64,000 nucleotides of DNA from an uncultured Candidatus Saccharibacteria bacterium. GTDB taxonomy: Bacteria; Patescibacteriota; Doudnabacteria; UBA920. The stretch lies in assembly GCA_964372905.1 (NCBI GenBank), contig CAYJQY010000006.1, positions 113 through 64,112 of the forward strand, read 5' to 3'. The notes under the pieces are model-generated. The model saw only the letters and a list, made by a program, of their open reading frames with translations. It did not search any database and was not told where the DNA came from. The position numbers and the translations under genes are program-made. Below are positions 52,005 through 63,788 of the stretch, piece after piece (the stretch's first letter is position 1; each line of letters opens with the position of its first letter).

Positions 52005-53510
52005 CTAGGGATTGAGTTGGCCGGCTACTCGGGAAGTCATTACTCCTTGTTGAGCTATGGTCTTGTCAGCGGTGTTGGCCGCTACAACATCGGACAAACT
52101 ATAGCCCCAGGAGGTAAAGACCGCCATGGAAGGAATGCCCATCAAACTGGATTGGCCAACTAATTGAATAGTGCCGCTATTGTTAACCAGGACTCCCGGA
52201 CGGTGCGCCTCGGTTGAGCTGGCTATGTTGGAGGTCTTGCTTAAGAATGACGAGTCGCCGTACTGGGCGCGACTAAAGGAAAAGCCCAGACCTTTGAACA
52301 CGGCCTCACTGGTAAAGGACGCCTTCTGGCCGCCGGTTATAAGAGCGCATTCGCCTTTTACGTCCGTACCCTTAGCTGCTGTCGCGCAGAACAGACTGCC
52401 GTCGCGCGGGGCGATGAAAGCTCCCTGCGGCAGGGCCAAGTCACCGGTGTTGGCAATGACCACCTGGCTCCAGGAAAGGAAACCGTAGGACAAGAACGCT
52501 CCGGCGGAAGTAAAGGCGCGGCGCATGTTGTCGCCGGTAATAAACCAGACCGTGCCGTCGGAGGTCTTGATCACGCTTCCGGCGCTATGCGCACCGCCTG
52601 TTGGCGGGGAGGCAACTCCGGGTTTAACCGCTAAAGCATAAACACTGAAGTGAGTCAAATTGACCGTAATGGTATTATTGACTGTGTCCACTACCACGGG
52701 CAAGGTTTCCCACTGGGCAGTGGCGCTATTGTAAAACAACACCGTCAGATTGCTTTCGTTGGTACCCGGAGGCAATTGGGATTCGTTATAGCTGAAGGTA
52801 ACGGTTACGGCGCTGTTGAAGTTGGTCACCGCAGTGCCGTTGCTGGAAGCAGAAAGAGTAAAGGGCATACCAACCAGGGCAGTGGCCCCCGCAGTGCTAA
52901 TACCCACCGTAATGCCGGCATTGGCTAACGTGGTCGTGCTGACGTTTACTGTGGTATTGCTGCCCACCGCGCCAGGAGGCACAGAGACTTGCACACTGGG
53001 CGTGCCAGTGTCGCTGGGAGTGTAAGTAGTGGTTCCTCCGGCAGAAGGCGTGGCTGTTACCGACCCCGTAGTGGTAGAAGGCCCAGACGGAGCAGATCCG
53101 CCGCCACCGCCACCGCCACCGCCACTGAAACAGGCAGTGGATGTCGGGGTCAGAGTGATATTTTCCACGGAAGAACCAGAGGCAATAACTATAGTTTCCA
53201 CTCTCGATCCGCTACAACTCGTAGTAATGGTAGCTTGATTAGTTTGACCAGAGATACTCATATGTCTGCTTGCCGAAGTCAGCGTGAACGTCGTATCGGC
53301 CGGCAAAGTTACAACTATACTATCGTCATTAACAACGAGAGAGTCGGCCTCCGAACCAGCTATAATGGTTAGGTCAATATCTGGCGCAGTCAAGGCGACC
53401 GTGGTGTCAGCGTCGTAAGTAAGGTCCTGCGCAAAGGCGATACTGGCCCCGGCTAAGCTTATGCCCAATCCCAGACCTACCGCAACTAGCCGCCTAAGAT
53501 ATTTTTTCAT
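52005..53510 (-). CDS. secreted Ser/Thr/Gly-rich surface protein with C-terminal ~170-aa FTSAGAF-repeat domain
   Basis: Signal peptide MKKYLRRLVAVGLGLGISLAGASIAFA. A poly-Gly run (GGGGGGGGG) and T/S-rich beta regions are present. The C-terminal domain is shared with the 55299..57539 protein. Confidence 0.6.
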   Translation of the reverse strand: MKKYLRRLVAVGLGLGISLAGASIAFAQDLTYDADTTVALTAPDIDLTIIAGSEADSLVVNDDSIVVTLPADTTFTLTSASRHMSISGQTNQATITTSCSGSRVETIVIASGSSVENITLTPTSTACFSGGGGGGGGGSAPSGPSTTTGSVTATPSAGGTTTYTPSDTGTPSVQVSVPPGAVGSNTTVNVSTTTLANAGITVGISTAGATALVGMPFTLSASSNGTAVTNFNSAVTVTFSYNESQLPPGTNESNLTVLFYNSATAQWETLPVVVDTVNNTITVNLTHFSVYALAVKPGVASPPTGGAHSAGSVIKTSDGTVWFITGDNMRRAFTSAGAFLSYGFLSWSQVVIANTGDLALPQGAFIAPRDGSLFCATAAKGTDVKGECALITGGQKASFTSEAVFKGLGFSFSRAQYGDSSFLSKTSNIASSTEAHRPGVLVNNSGTIQLVGQSSLMGIPSMAVFTSWGYSLSDVVAANTADKTIAQQGVMTSRVAGQLNP

Positions 53511-53547
53511 AAGGCATAATAGTTAATTGTTAAAGGATTGGTTAAGC

Positions 53548-61953: not shown

Positions 61954-61994
61954 AATAAATAATAGTATTGTTTAATTATTTGCCCGCTCTTTAC

Positions 61995-63788
61995 TCACTC
62001 AAGAACGGTGTTTGAATCGGTAAGAATGAAGTAGCGGTAGCATATGAACCCGGCCGCTATGACAGCGGCTACCATGAGGGCATAAATCCACCAGCGTGGG
62101 TGCGAACTGCTTGCTGGCTCATCGGCCGGCGAGGGGACTTCGTCCGTCATGGCCGTGGAAATGTCGGAAGCTTCGATAACTTCCTGTGATGTTTCCTCAA
62201 GCGGGGTATCCGAGTCGGCCCCAGAGGATTGGGCTGACTTTGCGGATTTGCTGGTCGAAGAAGAGGCCGCGGTTTTGGCGCTGGTCTTGGTGGATTTGGC
62301 TGTTTGGGCAGTGCTGGTCTTACTGGCCGCGGCCGCCGAAGCCGAAGCGGCAGCCGGAGACACTGTTAAGCTGGTTGGAGTCGTCGAAGCAGCTGAAGCA
62401 GAACTAGTACCGGAAGACGATAAAGTGACTGCGGCGGGGTTTTCCGCCGCCGCCTCGGGCGGCGGCGGAATAGGATTTATCATCCCCAAACTTGCCTCCC
62501 GCCACAGCCACTCGCCGTTAACTTTTTGATATCCCTCACCTTCTTTGCCGCTGCCGTCATAAGTCACGAAGTCTGCCAAAGTTTCATCGGGAAAAAACAA
62601 ATTGACCGTGTCGCCCGTGTTATTCAGCGCAAAATGCTGCCGGGGAATGACAATCACCGCGACCTGATGGGGCAATACTGATATCGGCGGCAGGCCGTAG
62701 GCGGAATTTTTGGGCTTGTTGTCCGCGCTGGCATCATCAAGCCACCAATTTGCCAGATTCACCGCTTCGCTCCCGTTATTTTCAATTTCCACCGCTTCAT
62801 TGCCGCTGTCTTCGCCCATTGGGTTGGCCAAAATTTCCGAAATTTTTATCTGATCGGACCAGCTCTCGGGAACTTCAGGAGCTTGACCGCTATTAGCAGA
62901 GCCAACATCATTCGATGCGGTCTCGGCGGCTTGGCTACCGGCTGCCGAACCAGTATCGGACGATATGGTCCCGGCCGATGCAGTGCCGCCGGAACCGGAA
63001 GCGCTTGAATCGACTGTGCACTGCGCGTTGGCGCTTTGGCTGTCATCATTATCGTTTGATGATGATTGCGTCCCATCGGACAGAGGCGGTTCCGCGGTCG
63101 GATCCGCGCTCGGTTCCTCACCAGGTTCCCCGGTCGGCGGATCAGTCGCTGAAGTTGCCGGCGCCGCACCAACCGGCGCGCCAGCCGATGCATCAACGGC
63201 CTGGCTGTTGCGGGGCTGGCTATTTGTTATGATGAAAACCGACTGGGCATCAAAAAGATTTTGCCGGAACAAAGCTTGATTCGCCCCGGGATTTTCGGTT
63301 GAAACGGTCTTAAAACCATTGTTGGTATTGCCCCAAGCCGCGCTGTCCAGGATCAAACCGGTATCATTGGGGCCGGCGCGCAGGGCAATGCCGTTGTTGT
63401 CGGCCAAAGTCGCGGTATTTTGCGCGTCGGCAGTCACGCCGGGGAAACTAAACGCGACGTTGGCCCACAAATAAAAGCCGTGCGTGGGAATCCACATATC
63501 TTCAGTCCAGGATTTAATAAGCGAGTCCTGGCTGCCCTGCGCCGTGCGCTTAACCAAACGAAGATCTTTCAAATTCACCGGCTCGCTCCCCGGGTTGAAC
63601 AATTCCACAAAATCCTCGGCCGTGTGACCCGCTCCGTCAGTAATCTTAACCTGGCTAATATACAGGCTATTCTCGGCGCGCAGGGTTTTCGGTTGCGCAA
63701 AAAGTCCGACATTAAGAATTAAAAAACCCAGCAGAACGACGCTGATGCGTCGTAACGCAAATTTGCGCAGCACAAATTTTTGTGACAT
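61995..63788 (-). CDS. secreted lamin-tail-domain (LTD) protein with C-terminal TM anchor
   Basis: An N-terminal signal/TM is followed by two LTD-like segments (EDFVELFNPGSEPVNLKDLRL..., GNEAVEIENNGSEAVNLANWWLDDAS). A Ser/Ala/Thr-rich linker leads to a C-terminal hydrophobic helix WWIYALMVAAVIAAGFICY. Confidence 0.5.
   Translation of the reverse strand: MSQKFVLRKFALRRISVVLLGFLILNVGLFAQPKTLRAENSLYISQVKITDGAGHTAEDFVELFNPGSEPVNLKDLRLVKRTAQGSQDSLIKSWTEDMWIPTHGFYLWANVAFSFPGVTADAQNTATLADNNGIALRAGPNDTGLILDSAAWGNTNNGFKTVSTENPGANQALFRQNLFDAQSVFIITNSQPRNSQAVDASAGAPVGAAPATSATDPPTGEPGEEPSADPTAEPPLSDGTQSSSNDNDDSQSANAQCTVDSSASGSGGTASAGTISSDTGSAAGSQAAETASNDVGSANSGQAPEVPESWSDQIKISEILANPMGEDSGNEAVEIENNGSEAVNLANWWLDDASADNKPKNSAYGLPPISVLPHQVAVIVIPRQHFALNNTGDTVNLFFPDETLADFVTYDGSGKEGEGYQKVNGEWLWREASLGMINPIPPPPEAAAENPAAVTLSSSGTSSASAASTTPTSLTVSPAAASASAAAASKTSTAQTAKSTKTSAKTAASSSTSKSAKSAQSSGADSDTPLEETSQEVIEASDISTAMTDEVPSPADEPASSSHPRWWIYALMVAAVIAAGFICYRYFILTDSNTVLE

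Follow-up and report, generated by a model that had tools for sequence, protein, structure and literature searches.

In the window analysed here (the whole stretch of 64,000 nucleotides, from an ultrasmall bacterium of the Patescibacteria/Doudnabacteria type), five minus-strand open reading frames lie next to the type IV pilus genes, and all of their products carry an N-terminal hydrophobic, signal-peptide-like segment according to a hydropathy heuristic (5/5). An earlier note, made from the letters alone, had described them as five consecutive genes for signal-peptide proteins forming a surface/secretome island downstream of the pilus genes. The features of this region are as follows.

49963..51723, minus strand: PilB (T2SSE ATPase), first gene of the type IV pilus cluster, given for context only
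51912-51940, minus strand: promoter-like site before pilB (consensus scan only)
51940..51968, minus strand: terminator-like hairpin of 13 pairs, 3' of the 501-aa gene (consensus scan only)
52005..53510, minus strand: 501-aa secreted protein (ORF), with signal peptide, conserved N-domain of ~125 aa, Gly/Ser/Thr linkers, inserted beta-rich region and C-terminal module
52008..52598, minus strand: three-repeat 'TSAGAF' module of the 501-aa protein, R1 = 52401-52583, R2 = 52209-52400, R3 = 52023-52199 (BLASTP, repeat HMM, AF2, Foldseek)
53548..54987, minus strand: 479-aa secreted protein with two copies of a ~190-aa Gly/Ala-rich domain and a C-terminal Cys-pair motif (ORF, self-alignment)
55216..55251, minus strand: strong terminator-like hairpin of 16 pairs, 3' of the 746-aa gene (consensus scan only)
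55299..57539, minus strand: 746-aa very acidic secreted protein with N-terminal module, probably 742 aa from a start at 57527 (ORF)
56832..57428, minus strand: three-repeat module of the 746-aa protein, R1 = 57258-57413, R2 = 57036-57233, R3 = 56847-57023 (BLASTP, repeat HMM)
57535..57645, minus strand: structured 5' leader of the 746-aa gene, with closing stem P1, apical hairpin P2 and extra hairpin P3
57602..57626, minus strand: conserved 25-nt P2 element TTGATTATATCAATTGAATAATCAA, a hairpin inside P1 that precedes the ribosome-binding site
58170..58595, minus strand: cupin / mannose-6-phosphate-isomerase-like gene (profile match and synteny)
58617-58690, minus strand: tRNA-Pro(TGG)
58725-58799, minus strand: tRNA-Gly(TCC)
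58885..59178, minus strand: HU DNA-binding protein (Pfam Bac_DNA_binding, 3e-27)
59294-59325, minus strand: terminator-like hairpin 3' of the 874-aa gene (consensus scan only)
59329..61953, minus strand: 874-aa secreted LCAT/LPLA2-family alpha/beta hydrolase, with N-domain, P12 linker, YDWR and AHSTGG motifs and a C-terminal region of ~300 aa
61995..63788, minus strand: 597-aa protein, in which two lamin-tail domains are accompanied by low-complexity acidic and Ser/Ala-rich linkers and by a transmembrane helix at the C-terminus

The five genes do not follow one another directly, as the cupin gene, both tRNAs and HU lie between the 746-aa and 874-aa genes. They do adjoin pilB, pilC, pilM and pilN, on the side that is upstream of pilB by the direction of transcription and not downstream. 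The cupin product has no evident secretion signal in its sequence, and a longer ORF to 58715 would overrun tRNA-Pro. Elsewhere, the window encodes a class A PBP (17916-20363), and the organism therefore makes peptidoglycan; the genome also contains full sets of genes for aromatic amino-acid and tryptophan biosynthesis.

Three of the secreted proteins could be related to known or widespread families. The 479-aa protein is internally duplicated, as had been suggested (44% identity over 186 aa, E=2e-37 in self-alignment), and on sequence similarity it is a member of a CPR-wide uncharacterised family: 70 homologues were found in Colwell-, Sung- and Doudnabacteria and Saccharimonadales, none of which has a Pfam domain in this region, and those in other CPR lineages do not adjoin pilus genes. 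The 874-aa protein exceeds the Pfam threshold for LCAT/LPLA2 (PF02450; 73.8 bits, cutoff 21) and matches LPLA2/LCAT structures in the PDB at 1.3e-9 (LPLA2, 4X90). Both the family and the motifs named earlier were found, although the proline run has 12 residues and not 13. The alignment covers only ~135-145 residues around the nucleophile of this putative lipase. In the 597-aa protein, two stretches match the lamin-tail domain (LTD, PF00932) above the Pfam threshold (74.9 bits, cutoff 34.3), and a transmembrane helix lies at residues ~566-590. The presence of an LTD protein was thus borne out, whereas the literature searched gave no support to the idea that such proteins are typical of episymbionts. 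Both bacterial proteins differ from the LCAT and LTD families in being secreted and in having extra N- and C-terminal regions.

The 501-aa and 746-aa proteins share a homologous end module. Residues 319-501 of the former and 50-236 of the latter are 47% identical (BLASTP, E=1e-42), in agreement with the ~170-aa shared domain built from three sub-repeats that had been noticed from the letters. The unit measures ~190 aa and comprises three repeats of ~55-60 aa, which are homologous to each other by hhalign (R1-R3 98.2%, E 5e-14; R2-R3 97.1%; R1-R2 94.2%), and a repeat-level HMM detected three units in each of the two proteins and none elsewhere in the window. In the 746-aa protein, the cysteine pair of R2 is lost and a different Cys pair is present in R1. 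No Pfam, NCBIfam or PHROGs model, including SLH, LysM, CWB and PG_binding, and no PDB sequence matched the module, which accords with the earlier view that no known cell-wall-binding module (SLH, LysM, CWB) fits. As far as these searches reach, the shared module is an undescribed sequence family.

The proposed novelty holds for the sequence family and not for the fold. AF2 models reached a pLDDT of 95.9 for the module and 94.5 for a single repeat, and with either query the top Foldseek matches in the PDB were exclusively EccB1, EccB3 and EccB5. For the single repeat, the eight best of ten matches had TM scores of 0.61-0.72 and rmsd of 2.1-3.2 A over 61-67 columns, and the last two had TM scores of 0.49-0.51; the whole module reached only 0.23 against EccB, from which its inter-repeat geometry differs. 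In the predicted structure, every repeat is thus an EccB-type repeat, and the published description of the EccB1 repeat agrees with this fold (PMC4769845). EccB (type VII / ESX secretion; PF05108; PDB 4KK7, 3X3M, 5EBC, 7NPS) and the module have in common a tandem unit of ~55-60 aa, a four-stranded sheet with two short helices and an extracytoplasmic location. On the other hand, EccB contains four repeats and the module three, the central beta-sheet core of EccB is missing from module proteins, its N-terminal membrane helix is replaced by a cleavable signal peptide, the module does not lie in a T7SS locus, and dozens of unrelated proteins carry it as a portable end-piece. Sequence similarity is absent as well: hhalign against EccB1 repeat 1 gave a probability below 1%, and no Pfam match was obtained. 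Proteins with one or two repeats of the EccB-type kind were also seen in actinophages. PlyCB of the streptococcal phage lysin PlyC (PDB 4F87), a single-domain octameric ring and not a tandem triplet, was absent among the Foldseek matches of both the full module and the single repeat, an absence that speaks against an anchor.

The module family is large: a threshold of E<=1e-3 gives 2,007 clusters (50% identity), one of E<=1e-30 still 441, and the named records are in nearly every case Doudnabacteria/Patescibacteria MAGs. Genomes carry several copies, at times in tandem, and paralogues occur in housekeeping surroundings, such as between uvrC and uvrA on a 964-kb Doudnabacteria contig. Of 178 members, 99 have the module at the N-terminus and 60 at the C-terminus, two have it internally and 17 consist of nothing else; these domain-only proteins would fit a lectin better than an anchor, and the median pI of the module (5.5, that is, not basic) likewise does not favour an anchor. 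Clustering of the 155 partner regions gave 60 unrelated groups, and the Pfam domains found on them (Trypsin_2, Peptidase_S8, TIG, He_PIG, fn3, Big_5, Lectin_C, cupredoxin and SASA) are all of extracytoplasmic types. An N-terminal hydrophobic segment was present in 158 of 165 complete members and the R2 Cys pair in 154 of 174, without a single case in which one Cys had been lost alone. Considering the terminal position, the at least 60 partner types, the signal peptides and the conserved Cys pair, an anchoring or binding role, for which the earlier note had named the domain a candidate, is the best reading of this architecture. A phage lysin or receptor-binding protein with the module would have pointed to a ligand in the own cell wall; none was found in IMG/VR and INPHARED, a weak negative as the IMG/VR scans used strict peptide patterns.

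With regard to the two cargo proteins of the window, the 501-aa protein has an identical copy in a public collection, shares its N-domain with a subfamily of 341-358-aa proteins and had no Pfam or NCBIfam match. The 746-aa protein belongs to an orthogroup of 727-760-aa proteins, and similar genes are syntenic in related MAGs. It is acidic as had been stated (pI 4.05; Asp+Glu 18% overall and 24% outside the module), although with 12.5% Asp the description as extremely Asp-rich was overstated. Translation probably begins at the later ATG, at 57527 (742 aa): the first ATG is overlapped by the GGAG ribosome-binding site, and on an identical contig the gene was called from the later start.

This gene is the one in the window that bears the structured leader (MFE -40.8 kcal/mol, z = -4.6), in which the 3' arm of P1 runs into the GGAG at 57535-57538. 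No Rfam family matched. The P2 element, whose family consensus is TTGATTGTCTCAATTGAATAATCAA, is unique in the window (chance expectation 0). In 924 kb of loci selected by the domain, all 50 P2 motif sites precede module genes, and in a metagenome scan that started from the motif a module gene follows in 31 of 33 testable sites, the two exceptions being assembly chimeras. The genes concerned have the module at the N-terminus. Covariation of P1 was tested across 72 leaders and in a CM alignment: cognate arms pair at -9.8 kcal/mol and non-cognate arms at -4.1 (cognate mean reached in 0 of 10,000 permutations), while in the CM alignment, which is fitted to the model, 97% of cells pair, double changes occur at 9/9 P1 pairs and 119 compensatory cells were counted against 30+-5 in shuffles. 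In every leader, the Shine-Dalgarno sequence is immediately adjacent to the 3' arm of P1. A hand tally of assemblies with at least two loci gave exactly one leader-bearing locus in 13 of 14. The leader-bearing protein classes are weakly to strongly acidic, Cys-poor and rich in Ala, Gly, Ser and Thr, and had no Pfam match; two cargo classes share one leader, signal peptide and module. Thus, the leader is an undescribed structured RNA that usually marks one module gene per genome.

Several explanations have to be weighed here. According to the earlier note, the five secreted proteins and the pilus machinery look like one toolkit for host attachment or predation, in which the lipase could attack the membranes of the host. 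Five genes with export signals within 12 kb adjoining pilB-pilN, as well as a secreted LCAT/LPLA2-type hydrolase, would suit this; to our knowledge CPR bacteria generally lack lipid synthesis, and a secreted acyltransferase or phospholipase would then be an attractive route for lipid scavenging. However, the run is broken up by HU, two tRNAs and the cupin gene. Moreover, the secreted-protein genes seem to be transcribed as three or four separate units, because consensus scans place strong terminator-like hairpins after the 874-aa, 746-aa and 501-aa genes and promoter-like sites before the 746-aa gene, the 479-aa gene and pilB. The order LTD - HU - (tRNAs, cupin) - 746-like gene - ... - pilB is conserved in related MAGs (LTD upstream of HU in at least eight related loci), but it includes HU and tRNAs, indicating general synteny and no functional unit, and the relatives' syntenic loci lack the LCAT and 479-aa genes. 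The 479-aa family and module paralogues also occur in unrelated contexts. A coherent toolkit is therefore very improbable and the island was only partly right; the three proteins without the module (479-aa protein, LCAT-type lipase and LTD protein) are best explained as independent secreted or membrane proteins that are neighbours by chance. Quite improbable, too, is that the module serves as a protein-protein oligomerisation or docking scaffold, like the periplasmic domain of EccB in ESX complexes, assembling cargo on a shared protein or machine of the envelope, perhaps the neighbouring pilus. Solved structures of the fold exist only for EccB1/3/5, and these represent periplasmic assemblies in a secretion machine; a module gene lies (nearly) directly upstream of pilB in the window and in loci L020, L026, L036 and L074, the PilB of the last being only 61% identical. 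But pilus genes are distant from most of the paralogues, the stretch from the 501-aa gene to pilB contains a terminator-like hairpin as well as a separate promoter-like site, the module lacks the sequence, core domain and membrane anchor of EccB, and this synteny, which also takes in HU and tRNAs, carries no functional information.

It is unlikely that the module faces outward as an adhesin or lectin for a host or partner surface or an environmental glycan, to which the fused proteases and Ig-like stalks would be delivered. Domain-only and tandem-domain proteins occur, the conserved positions F35, Y38, F95, F101, W164, D115, S117, H132, N175 and D178 are compatible with a putative sugar-binding site, partners include many Ig-like stalks and one C-type lectin, and a host-attached life is generally assumed for Patescibacteria. 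Nevertheless, fusions to cupredoxin/plastocyanin-type domains and housekeeping-looking proteases fit retention on the own surface better, and the module is conserved somewhat more (42-49% identity) than the faster diverging cargo (27-38%), which suggests a constant, self ligand; with its biosynthetic genes and PBP, the organism is not obviously an obligate parasite. For the leader, it seems distinctly unlikely that P2 acts chiefly at the DNA level, as an operator or promoter element bound by a dimeric transcription factor, and not as an RNA structure. P2 is a near-palindrome (TTGATT-N13-AATCAA, central CAATTG), almost invariant despite its base-pairing, and the CM also scored the reverse strand at two sites. 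However, the flanking P1 helix covaries widely through many different sequences, for which a DNA site gives no reason, its 3' arm adjoins the Shine-Dalgarno sequence in all cases, and P2 variants keep pairing in the sense-strand RNA only (G-C to G-U at 3/23 in L046 and L051; G-U/A-U/G-C at 7/19). As a DNA palindrome, P2 could also serve as an operator, and the two roles are compatible with each other.

The explanation that we favour, with a little less than even confidence, is that the module is a non-covalent anchor on the cell's own envelope, that the leader-marked gene encodes the major surface protein and that the leader is a regulatory or stabilising hairpin. The module is a lineage-specific extracytoplasmic unit of Doudnabacteria-type Patescibacteria, made of three tandem EccB-type repeats with R2 usually disulfide-stapled. 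In many unrelated exported proteins it either follows the signal peptide directly or forms the very C-terminus, and it may hold these proteins on peptidoglycan or an associated glycopolymer. The SLH triplet (PF00395) provides a parallel: three tandem repeats of ~55-60 aa, N- or C-terminal on the S-layer protein and on exoproteins (proteases, glycosidases), several per genome, bind a pyruvylated secondary cell-wall polymer. Its architecture of a three-repeat end unit with diverse cargo and several copies per genome resembles that of the module, although there is no sequence match and SLH is mainly helical, the module beta-rich.

Usually one N-terminal-module gene per genome carries a conserved expression cassette, in which an AT-rich promoter region and the leader (P1 reaching onto the ribosome-binding site, and the invariant P2) are combined with a signal peptide, likewise conserved, and with the module. 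In E. coli ompA and Lactobacillus slpA, 5'-terminal stem-loops stabilise highly expressed envelope-protein mRNAs. The present hairpin would similarly lie at or near the 5' end of its transcript, and it ends just 5' of the Shine-Dalgarno sequence of a putative major surface-protein gene, but the apical P2 keeps its sequence in many genomes, suggestive of a specific binding partner and not of simple 5' protection; the leader may thus be an mRNA-stabilising or protein-bound regulatory hairpin. Campylobacter fetus sap homologues share the upstream region and the 5' part encoding the signal or anchor, whereas the remainder of the protein varies among them, much like the two cargo classes under one leader; in contrast, no evidence of promoter inversion or recombination-based switching was seen for the leader-bearing loci, usually present as one copy per assembly. 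The 501-aa protein may be a second cargo of the same anchor, and the 746-aa acidic protein may be the major, S-layer-like surface protein of the cell. A single leader-marked gene per genome would suit the main surface protein of that genome.

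The 501-aa protein (52005..53510, minus strand) and the 746-aa protein (55299..57539, minus strand) share a domain at a level far beyond chance, as had been noticed from the sequence alone. In BLASTP, residues 319-501 of the former and residues 50-236 of the latter are 47% identical (E=1e-42). The three sub-repeats (R1-R3) described for this module are homologous by profile comparison of the segments. With the three segments cut from an alignment of 174 family members, R1 and R3 matched at 98.2% (E 5e-14), R2 and R3 at 97.1% (E 5e-11), and R1 and R2 at 94.2% (E 1e-7). A repeat-level HMM detected exactly three units per protein, and zero others in the six-frame translation of the window. 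The three motif lines of the earlier note represent a helix-plus-turn signature carried by each repeat, [FYP]-[TS]-S-x-x-x-F-x-[SG]-[YLW]-G-[FY]. The statement that the domain could not be matched to a known wall-binding module also held: LysM, CW_binding_1/2, SH3b, PG_binding_1, SPOR and PASTA gave no match in either protein (Pfam and NCBIfam, E<=0.1), and none of them was among the Foldseek fold matches of the domain or of a single repeat. Neither single-sequence nor profile queries with the domain gave more than noise against Pfam, NCBIfam, PHROGs and PDB sequences.

The structure prediction that had been proposed for the shared domain gave a confident AlphaFold2 model of the 190-aa unit (38-sequence alignment, pLDDT 95.9, pTM 0.88), in which each repeat has the order strand-strand-strand-helix-strand(-helix), or E-E-E-H-E-H. 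When the full domain was compared with the PDB by Foldseek, eleven EccB1, EccB3 and EccB5 entries led the list (E 1e-4 to 3e-2), and the next entries had E>1. The full-domain TM against EccB was 0.23, a low value because the repeats are arranged differently. For the single-repeat model (pLDDT 94.5), the best ten PDB matches were all EccB (EccB1, EccB5), and the eight best EccB structures superposed with TM 0.61-0.72 and rmsd 2.1-3.2 A over 61-67 columns at 16-22% identity.

Like the EccB repeat (T7SS_ESX1_EccB, PF05108), the module repeat is a four-stranded sheet plus two helices of ~55 aa. However, the module sequence has no PF05108 match (no Pfam at E<=0.1), a profile search of PDB sequences with the domain did not retrieve EccB, and the repeat profiles gave an hhalign probability of 0.1-0.3% against EccB1 repeat 1, hmmsearch likewise finding no detectable homology. 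EccB consists of an N-terminal transmembrane helix, a central beta-sheet core and four flanking repeats, whereas the module has three repeats, lacks the core and the membrane helix, and occurs in proteins with a signal-peptide-like N-terminus. In addition, EccB belongs to the ESX/T7SS cluster (EccC, EccD, WXG100), whereas the module neighbours among the ORFs scanned are T4P genes, HU, tRNAs and biosynthetic genes. An EccB-type repeat fold with no sequence match therefore marks the domain as a new sequence family, built from a known repeat fold arranged in a new way, and sets it outside the EccB family; it is new at the family level and not at the fold level. No mention of EccB-like repeats in Patescibacteria was found in the literature searched. 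The closest analogue in mode of working is the SLH triplet, although the module has no Pfam match to the SLH domain (PF00395), whose fold is helical while the module model is beta-rich.

PlyCB (4F87/4F88) was not among the Foldseek matches of the full domain or the single repeat, and no account of this fold in phages is known to us apart from the PlyCB comparison. In BFVD, uncharacterised actinophage proteins with one or two EccB-type repeats were observed (rmsd 1.7-3.4 A), including A0A1I9SA71 of Rhodococcus phage Weasels2 (E 1e-5, TM 0.71) and A0A345MGB2 of Streptomyces phage LukeCage; single repeats in other such proteins superposed at rmsd 1.7-2.2 A. Judging from these models, EccB-type repeats in actinophage proteins might mark wall-binding parts.

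With regard to distribution, a word-indexed first search had yielded 41 relatives, all from Patescibacteria metagenomes and all unnamed or "hypothetical". The suggested search of metagenomic proteins, extended to 1.84 billion cluster representatives that were all scanned with an HMM, revealed a large family with many partners: 2,007 clusters at E<=1e-3, 441 of them at E<=1e-30. Of the best 178 members, 99 have the domain at the N-terminus right behind the signal peptide, 60 have it at the very C-terminal end, 17 consist of the domain alone and 2 carry it internally. Their 155 partner regions (>=100 aa each) fall into 60 unrelated clusters, 44 of which are singletons. The partners recognised by Pfam are all extracytoplasmic, among them Trypsin_2, subtilase S8, TIG, He_PIG, fn3, Big_5, C-type lectin, cupredoxin/plastocyanin and SASA esterase, and an N-terminal hydrophobic segment is present in 158 of the 165 complete members. 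A cysteine pair in the repeat 2 hairpin occurs in 154/174 members, with loss of a single cysteine never seen, a pattern as would be expected of a disulfide in an exported domain. The copy in the 746-aa protein is one of the few without this pair and has two different cysteines in repeat 1. The polar and aromatic positions D115, S117, H132, N175, D178, F35, Y38 and W164 (domain numbering) are conserved.

The domain was confirmed in 123 stretches of one-genome-per-species contigs, often with two or three loci per assembly, under the names Candidatus Doudnabacteria, "Patescibacteria group", unnamed "bacterium" or, as an automatic label, "uncultured Candidatus Saccharibacteria" MAG. We suspect that the Saccharibacteria labels are generic, since those MAGs match Doudnabacteria MAGs in synteny. 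A second, profile-based search returned Doudnabacteria or Patescibacteria names with one exception, a domain-only protein of 238 aa (P0318; 8001-8717 of retrieved locus L085, GCA_037724145.1, JBBJOP010000010.1) binned as Pyrinomonadaceae (Acidobacteriota). Its surroundings are crowded with transposase genes, so it was discounted as evidence for a family reaching beyond Patescibacteria; the contig was either binned wrongly or acquired the gene horizontally from Patescibacteria.

The 746-aa gene is preceded by a gap of 630 nt, ~30-60 nt of which are conserved in about 36 other loci. They belong to a structured leader that the earlier note does not mention. The core of this leader is a 25-mer with the consensus TTGATTGTCTCAATTGAATAATCAA, and its single copy in the window, where none is expected by chance, is the following.

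57602-57626, minus strand, 25-mer leader core, TTGATTATATCAATTGAATAATCAA

The core occurred 50 times in the 924 kb of window and related loci (<=4 mismatches; 30 exact), and at 50/50 occurrences the domain was encoded within 600 nt downstream on the same strand. As these loci had been picked via the domain, a motif-first metagenome scan served as control. It found the exact element in 37 loci; the domain begins 38-72 codons downstream in 31 of them, four end <200 nt past the element, and two are probably assembly chimeras, one of which retains the MQNSFAKKLF signal peptide. In the two loci that are probably chimeric (L100, Ga0207652_10335120, and L110, Ga0137403_10225487), AT-rich leader or signal-peptide sequence turns abruptly to unrelated high-GC sequence. 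The core stands roughly 20-85 nt ahead of the start codon of genes encoding a conserved signal peptide and then the module, and across the window copy (57535-57645, minus strand) and the retrieved loci L004-L082 and L086-L122 the leader occurs solely upstream of genes with an N-terminal module; the 501-aa gene lacks it.

Minimum-free-energy folds of this ~60-110-nt leader were consistent across loci. In the predicted structure the 5' arm of the closing stem P1 is a U-run plus 3-6 variable bases, and the 3' arm consists of the complementary bases and an A-run ending at the GGAG ribosome-binding site; P2 is the core element, an 11-bp hairpin with a C bulge and an AAUU loop; and a further hairpin, P3, is inserted in longer leaders, including that of the window, whose leader folds at -40.8 kcal/mol (z = -4.6). 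The variable part of P1 differs in nearly every locus with its complementarity kept (AGGC/GCCU, CCAG/CUGG, CAAGC/GCUUG, CUGUAG/CUACAG and others). Among 72 distinct leaders the mean duplex energy was -9.8 kcal/mol for cognate versus -4.1 kcal/mol for non-cognate arms, and the cognate mean was reached in 0/10,000 permutations. A covariance model built from four sequences of the same geometry gave 59 matches in 1.05 Mb, all at leader sites, two of them being the reverse strand of the same site. In the resulting alignment 97% of cells pair, both sides change in all nine P1 pairs, and 119 cells are compensatory versus 30+-5 in shuffles, while slid controls pair at 34-52%. Because this alignment is fitted to the model, the permutation test matters; pair counts were taken from the covariance-model alignment together with the duplex-energy permutation, and a MAFFT alignment, being out of structural register, was excluded. 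When the window was searched against Rfam 15, only tRNAs reached the gathering score, no family was found for the leader, and the best sub-threshold match in 57450-57750 was noise (E 0.98). As judged from predicted pairing and covariation, the leader is a new RNA tightly coupled to module genes.

With moderate to low confidence, we regard the leader as a stabilising or protein-bound regulatory hairpin. The rival explanation is that P2 acts as a DNA operator. P2 is almost invariant, and in its few variants the pairing of the sense-strand RNA is preserved (U-A to C-G at 2/24, G-C to G-U at 3/23 and G-U/A-U/G-C at 7/19).

Two classes of cargo, both without any Pfam match, bear the leader. The larger (about 1,130-1,600 aa, mostly starting MQNSVAKKIFAVG) has a pI around 5, few Cys and about half Ala/Gly/Ser/Thr; the class of 727-760 aa, to which the 746-aa protein belongs, has 14-26% Asp+Glu and a pI of ~4.05. 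Exactly one leader-bearing locus was counted in 13 of the 14 assemblies with at least two loci (a hand tally among the 80 loci listed), and locus L028 has two leader-bearing genes in tandem. At locus L036 the gene between the cupin gene and pilB is of the MQNS class and not of the 746 class; thus leader, signal peptide and module persist as one cassette with a different cargo.

The 746-aa protein itself has a signal-peptide-like N-terminus, the module next to it, a pI of 4.05 and four Cys outside the domain, and its C-terminal region gave no PDB, Pfam or PHROGs match and no internal repeat by BLAST. It resembles S-layer proteins in being large, acidic, low in Cys and of exported type with a terminal module, which are permissive and not specific features. 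One leader gene per genome, the protein composition, the absence of a known domain and a strong terminator lead us to propose, with moderate to low confidence and from sequence features, that it may be the major surface (S-layer-like) protein of the cell. A preprint that predicts S-layers across prokaryotes, including new S-layer proteins and anchoring domains in Patescibacteria (10.1101/2024.05.28.596244), makes such a reading plausible; the module is not described in the passages of it that were consulted.

The coordinates of all five secreted-protein genes were confirmed, and each product begins with a hydrophobic segment typical of signal peptides (hydropathy heuristic). The genes had been described as consecutive, which is not the case, as four genes interrupt them. 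They do lie beside the pilus genes, not downstream as proposed but transcriptionally upstream of PilB, PilC, PilM and PilN, which have lower coordinates. The interrupting genes and the terminator-like hairpins found by consensus scan are as follows.

Between the 746-aa and 874-aa genes, minus strand, cupin/mannose-6-phosphate-isomerase-like gene
58617-58690, minus strand, tRNA-Pro
58725-58799, minus strand, tRNA-Gly
Between the 746-aa and 874-aa genes, minus strand, HU gene
59294-59325, minus strand, terminator-like hairpin of 12 pairs after the 874-aa gene
55216-55251, minus strand, terminator-like hairpin of 16 pairs after the 746-aa gene
51940-51968, minus strand, terminator-like hairpin of 13 pairs after the 501-aa gene

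Together with promoter-like sites, which are consensus matches only, ahead of the 746-aa gene, the 479-aa gene and pilB, these features suggest the predicted transcription units LTD-LCAT, HU, 746, 479-501 and pilB onwards. A perfect sigma-70 consensus (TTGACA-17-TATAAT, 12/12) immediately follows the cupin gene, at 58135-58163 on the minus strand, and precedes the leader by ~470 nt. These 470 nt contain short ORFs only (<=61 aa) and are conserved in none of the related loci; the site could serve as promoter for a long 5' UTR or for a small RNA that is not annotated. The long "cupin" ORF from 58715 is a read-through of tRNA-Pro, and the gene probably starts at 58595, since homologues align solely from residue 40 on. 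The N-terminal extension (58596-58715, minus strand) gave short tblastn matches, 84-89% identical, in 33 related loci because it is the translated tRNA-Pro gene, a trap for annotation based on ORFs.

In related MAGs the order LTD protein, HU, (tRNAs, cupin), 746-like gene, and further on PilB and PilC is conserved (loci L006, L015, L020, L023, L026, L028, L032 and L038), with a PilB identity of 72-77% where pilB falls inside the retrieved stretch. In L026 an unrelated TPR membrane protein is encoded between the 746-like gene and pilB. The LCAT and 479-aa genes were not found in these syntenic loci, and the block reflects general synteny among relatives, as HU and tRNAs belong to it. The proposal that the secreted proteins and the pilus machinery form one functional region for host attachment or predation, an island or toolkit, is thus weakly supported and is not adopted here. 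The canonical type IV pilin motif (G-F-T-L-I-E) is absent from all window ORFs of at least 60 aa.

As for the other secreted proteins, the internal duplication of the 479-aa protein (53548..54987, minus strand) was borne out (44% identity over 186 aa, E=2e-37). Its ~190-aa Gly/Ala-rich domain represents a secreted-protein family of its own in the Candidate Phyla Radiation (CPR; Colwellbacteria, Sungbacteria, Saccharimonadales). The retrieved members (P0180-P0249), with lengths of 268-780 aa, align to between one third and almost the whole of the query. No curated family covers the region in any of them, one also carries collagen repeats (PF01391), and in other CPR lineages the family is not adjacent to pilus genes. 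The C-terminus of the 479-aa protein has the two-cysteine motif CAQGSMFLRTDGDADSTIYAC, and its C-terminal region had no PDB, Pfam or PHROGs match. The 874-aa protein (59329..61953, minus strand) belongs to the LCAT family (PF02450, 73.8 bits against a cutoff of 21) with AHSTGG and YDWR present as described, and it matched LPLA2/LCAT structures at 1e-9 to 5e-5; the proline run of its linker counts 12 residues instead of 13. From its sequence, this LCAT-type lipase would be a reasonable separate lead for lipid scavenging. In the 597-aa protein (61995..63788, minus strand) LTD was recovered in two stretches (PF00932, 74.9 bits against 34.3), along with a C-terminal transmembrane helix that had gone unmentioned. 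A literature search found nothing for the idea that LTD proteins are typical of episymbionts.

Several further genes of the window were also noted. A 1837-aa alpha-2-macroglobulin-like protein (A2M, A2M_BRD, bMG10, Big_5) is encoded at 1767-7280 on the minus strand, with a Hint/intein-like segment (PT-HINT, Vint, Hom_end_hint; residues ~1076-1200) inserted just before the A2M domain, and 20317-25812 (minus strand) is a large uncharacterised ORF of 1831 aa without any Pfam match. Genes of the shikimate/aromatic amino-acid and tryptophan pathways were identified within 35557-42821, and the ORFs at about 28321-44973 may extend this cluster. With the PBP, the aromatic pathway genes amount to more biosynthetic capacity than expected of a Patescibacterium.

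35557-36081, shikimate kinase
36091-37389, EPSP synthase
37844-39238, anthranilate synthase component I
41631-42821, PALP enzyme, which could be TrpB
17916-20363, class A PBP

The end position at either terminus, the extreme promiscuity of partners, their strictly extracytoplasmic nature (cupredoxins and proteases included), the several copies per genome, the disulfide and the linker-rich junctions point to a binding module by which many exported proteins would be tethered. Since the organism has a class A PBP, the ligand could plausibly be based on peptidoglycan. One rival is that the module is an outward-facing lectin or adhesin. Copies carried by phages, had any been found, would have pointed to the wall of the cell itself as what the module binds; two pattern scans of IMG/VR and a tblastn search of INPHARED found none. 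Another rival sees the module as a protein scaffold like that of EccB, perhaps in connection with the pilus machine. At locus L074 (PilB 61%) a different protein with an N-terminal module is encoded 98 nt upstream of pilB, and other module paralogues are found among housekeeping genes, one of them flanked by uvrC and uvrA on a 964-kb Doudnabacteria contig.

Little is known of the way in which CPR/Patescibacteria assemble and decorate their envelopes, and most of their surface proteins are "hypothetical"; to our knowledge, few S-layer proteins or anchoring systems have been identified in Patescibacteria so far. Repeat-built surface-anchoring modules and structured 5' leaders are known kinds of element, and what is added here is a large module family, restricted to one lineage and absent from curated collections, whose structure is predicted with confidence, together with the covarying leader RNA. 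The HMM of the module family, with about 2,000 clusters, gives access to a listing of the lineage-wide surface-displayed proteome, including proteases, cupredoxins and lectins, and the leader points, genome by genome, to the one member that probably serves as the major surface protein. The fold match provides the first non-T7SS relatives of the EccB repeat and may bear on EccB function. A bolder idea, which we consider rather unlikely, is that Doudnabacteria-type Patescibacteria own a counterpart of SLH, in which an EccB-fold triplet would anchor the S-layer protein and the remaining exoproteome to the wall and the invariant leader hairpin would bind a regulator or stabiliser of the single S-layer gene. 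If this were true, the mycobacterial type VII EccB repeats would descend from the same wall-binding unit, and the unexplained periplasmic domain of EccB would gain a testable function.
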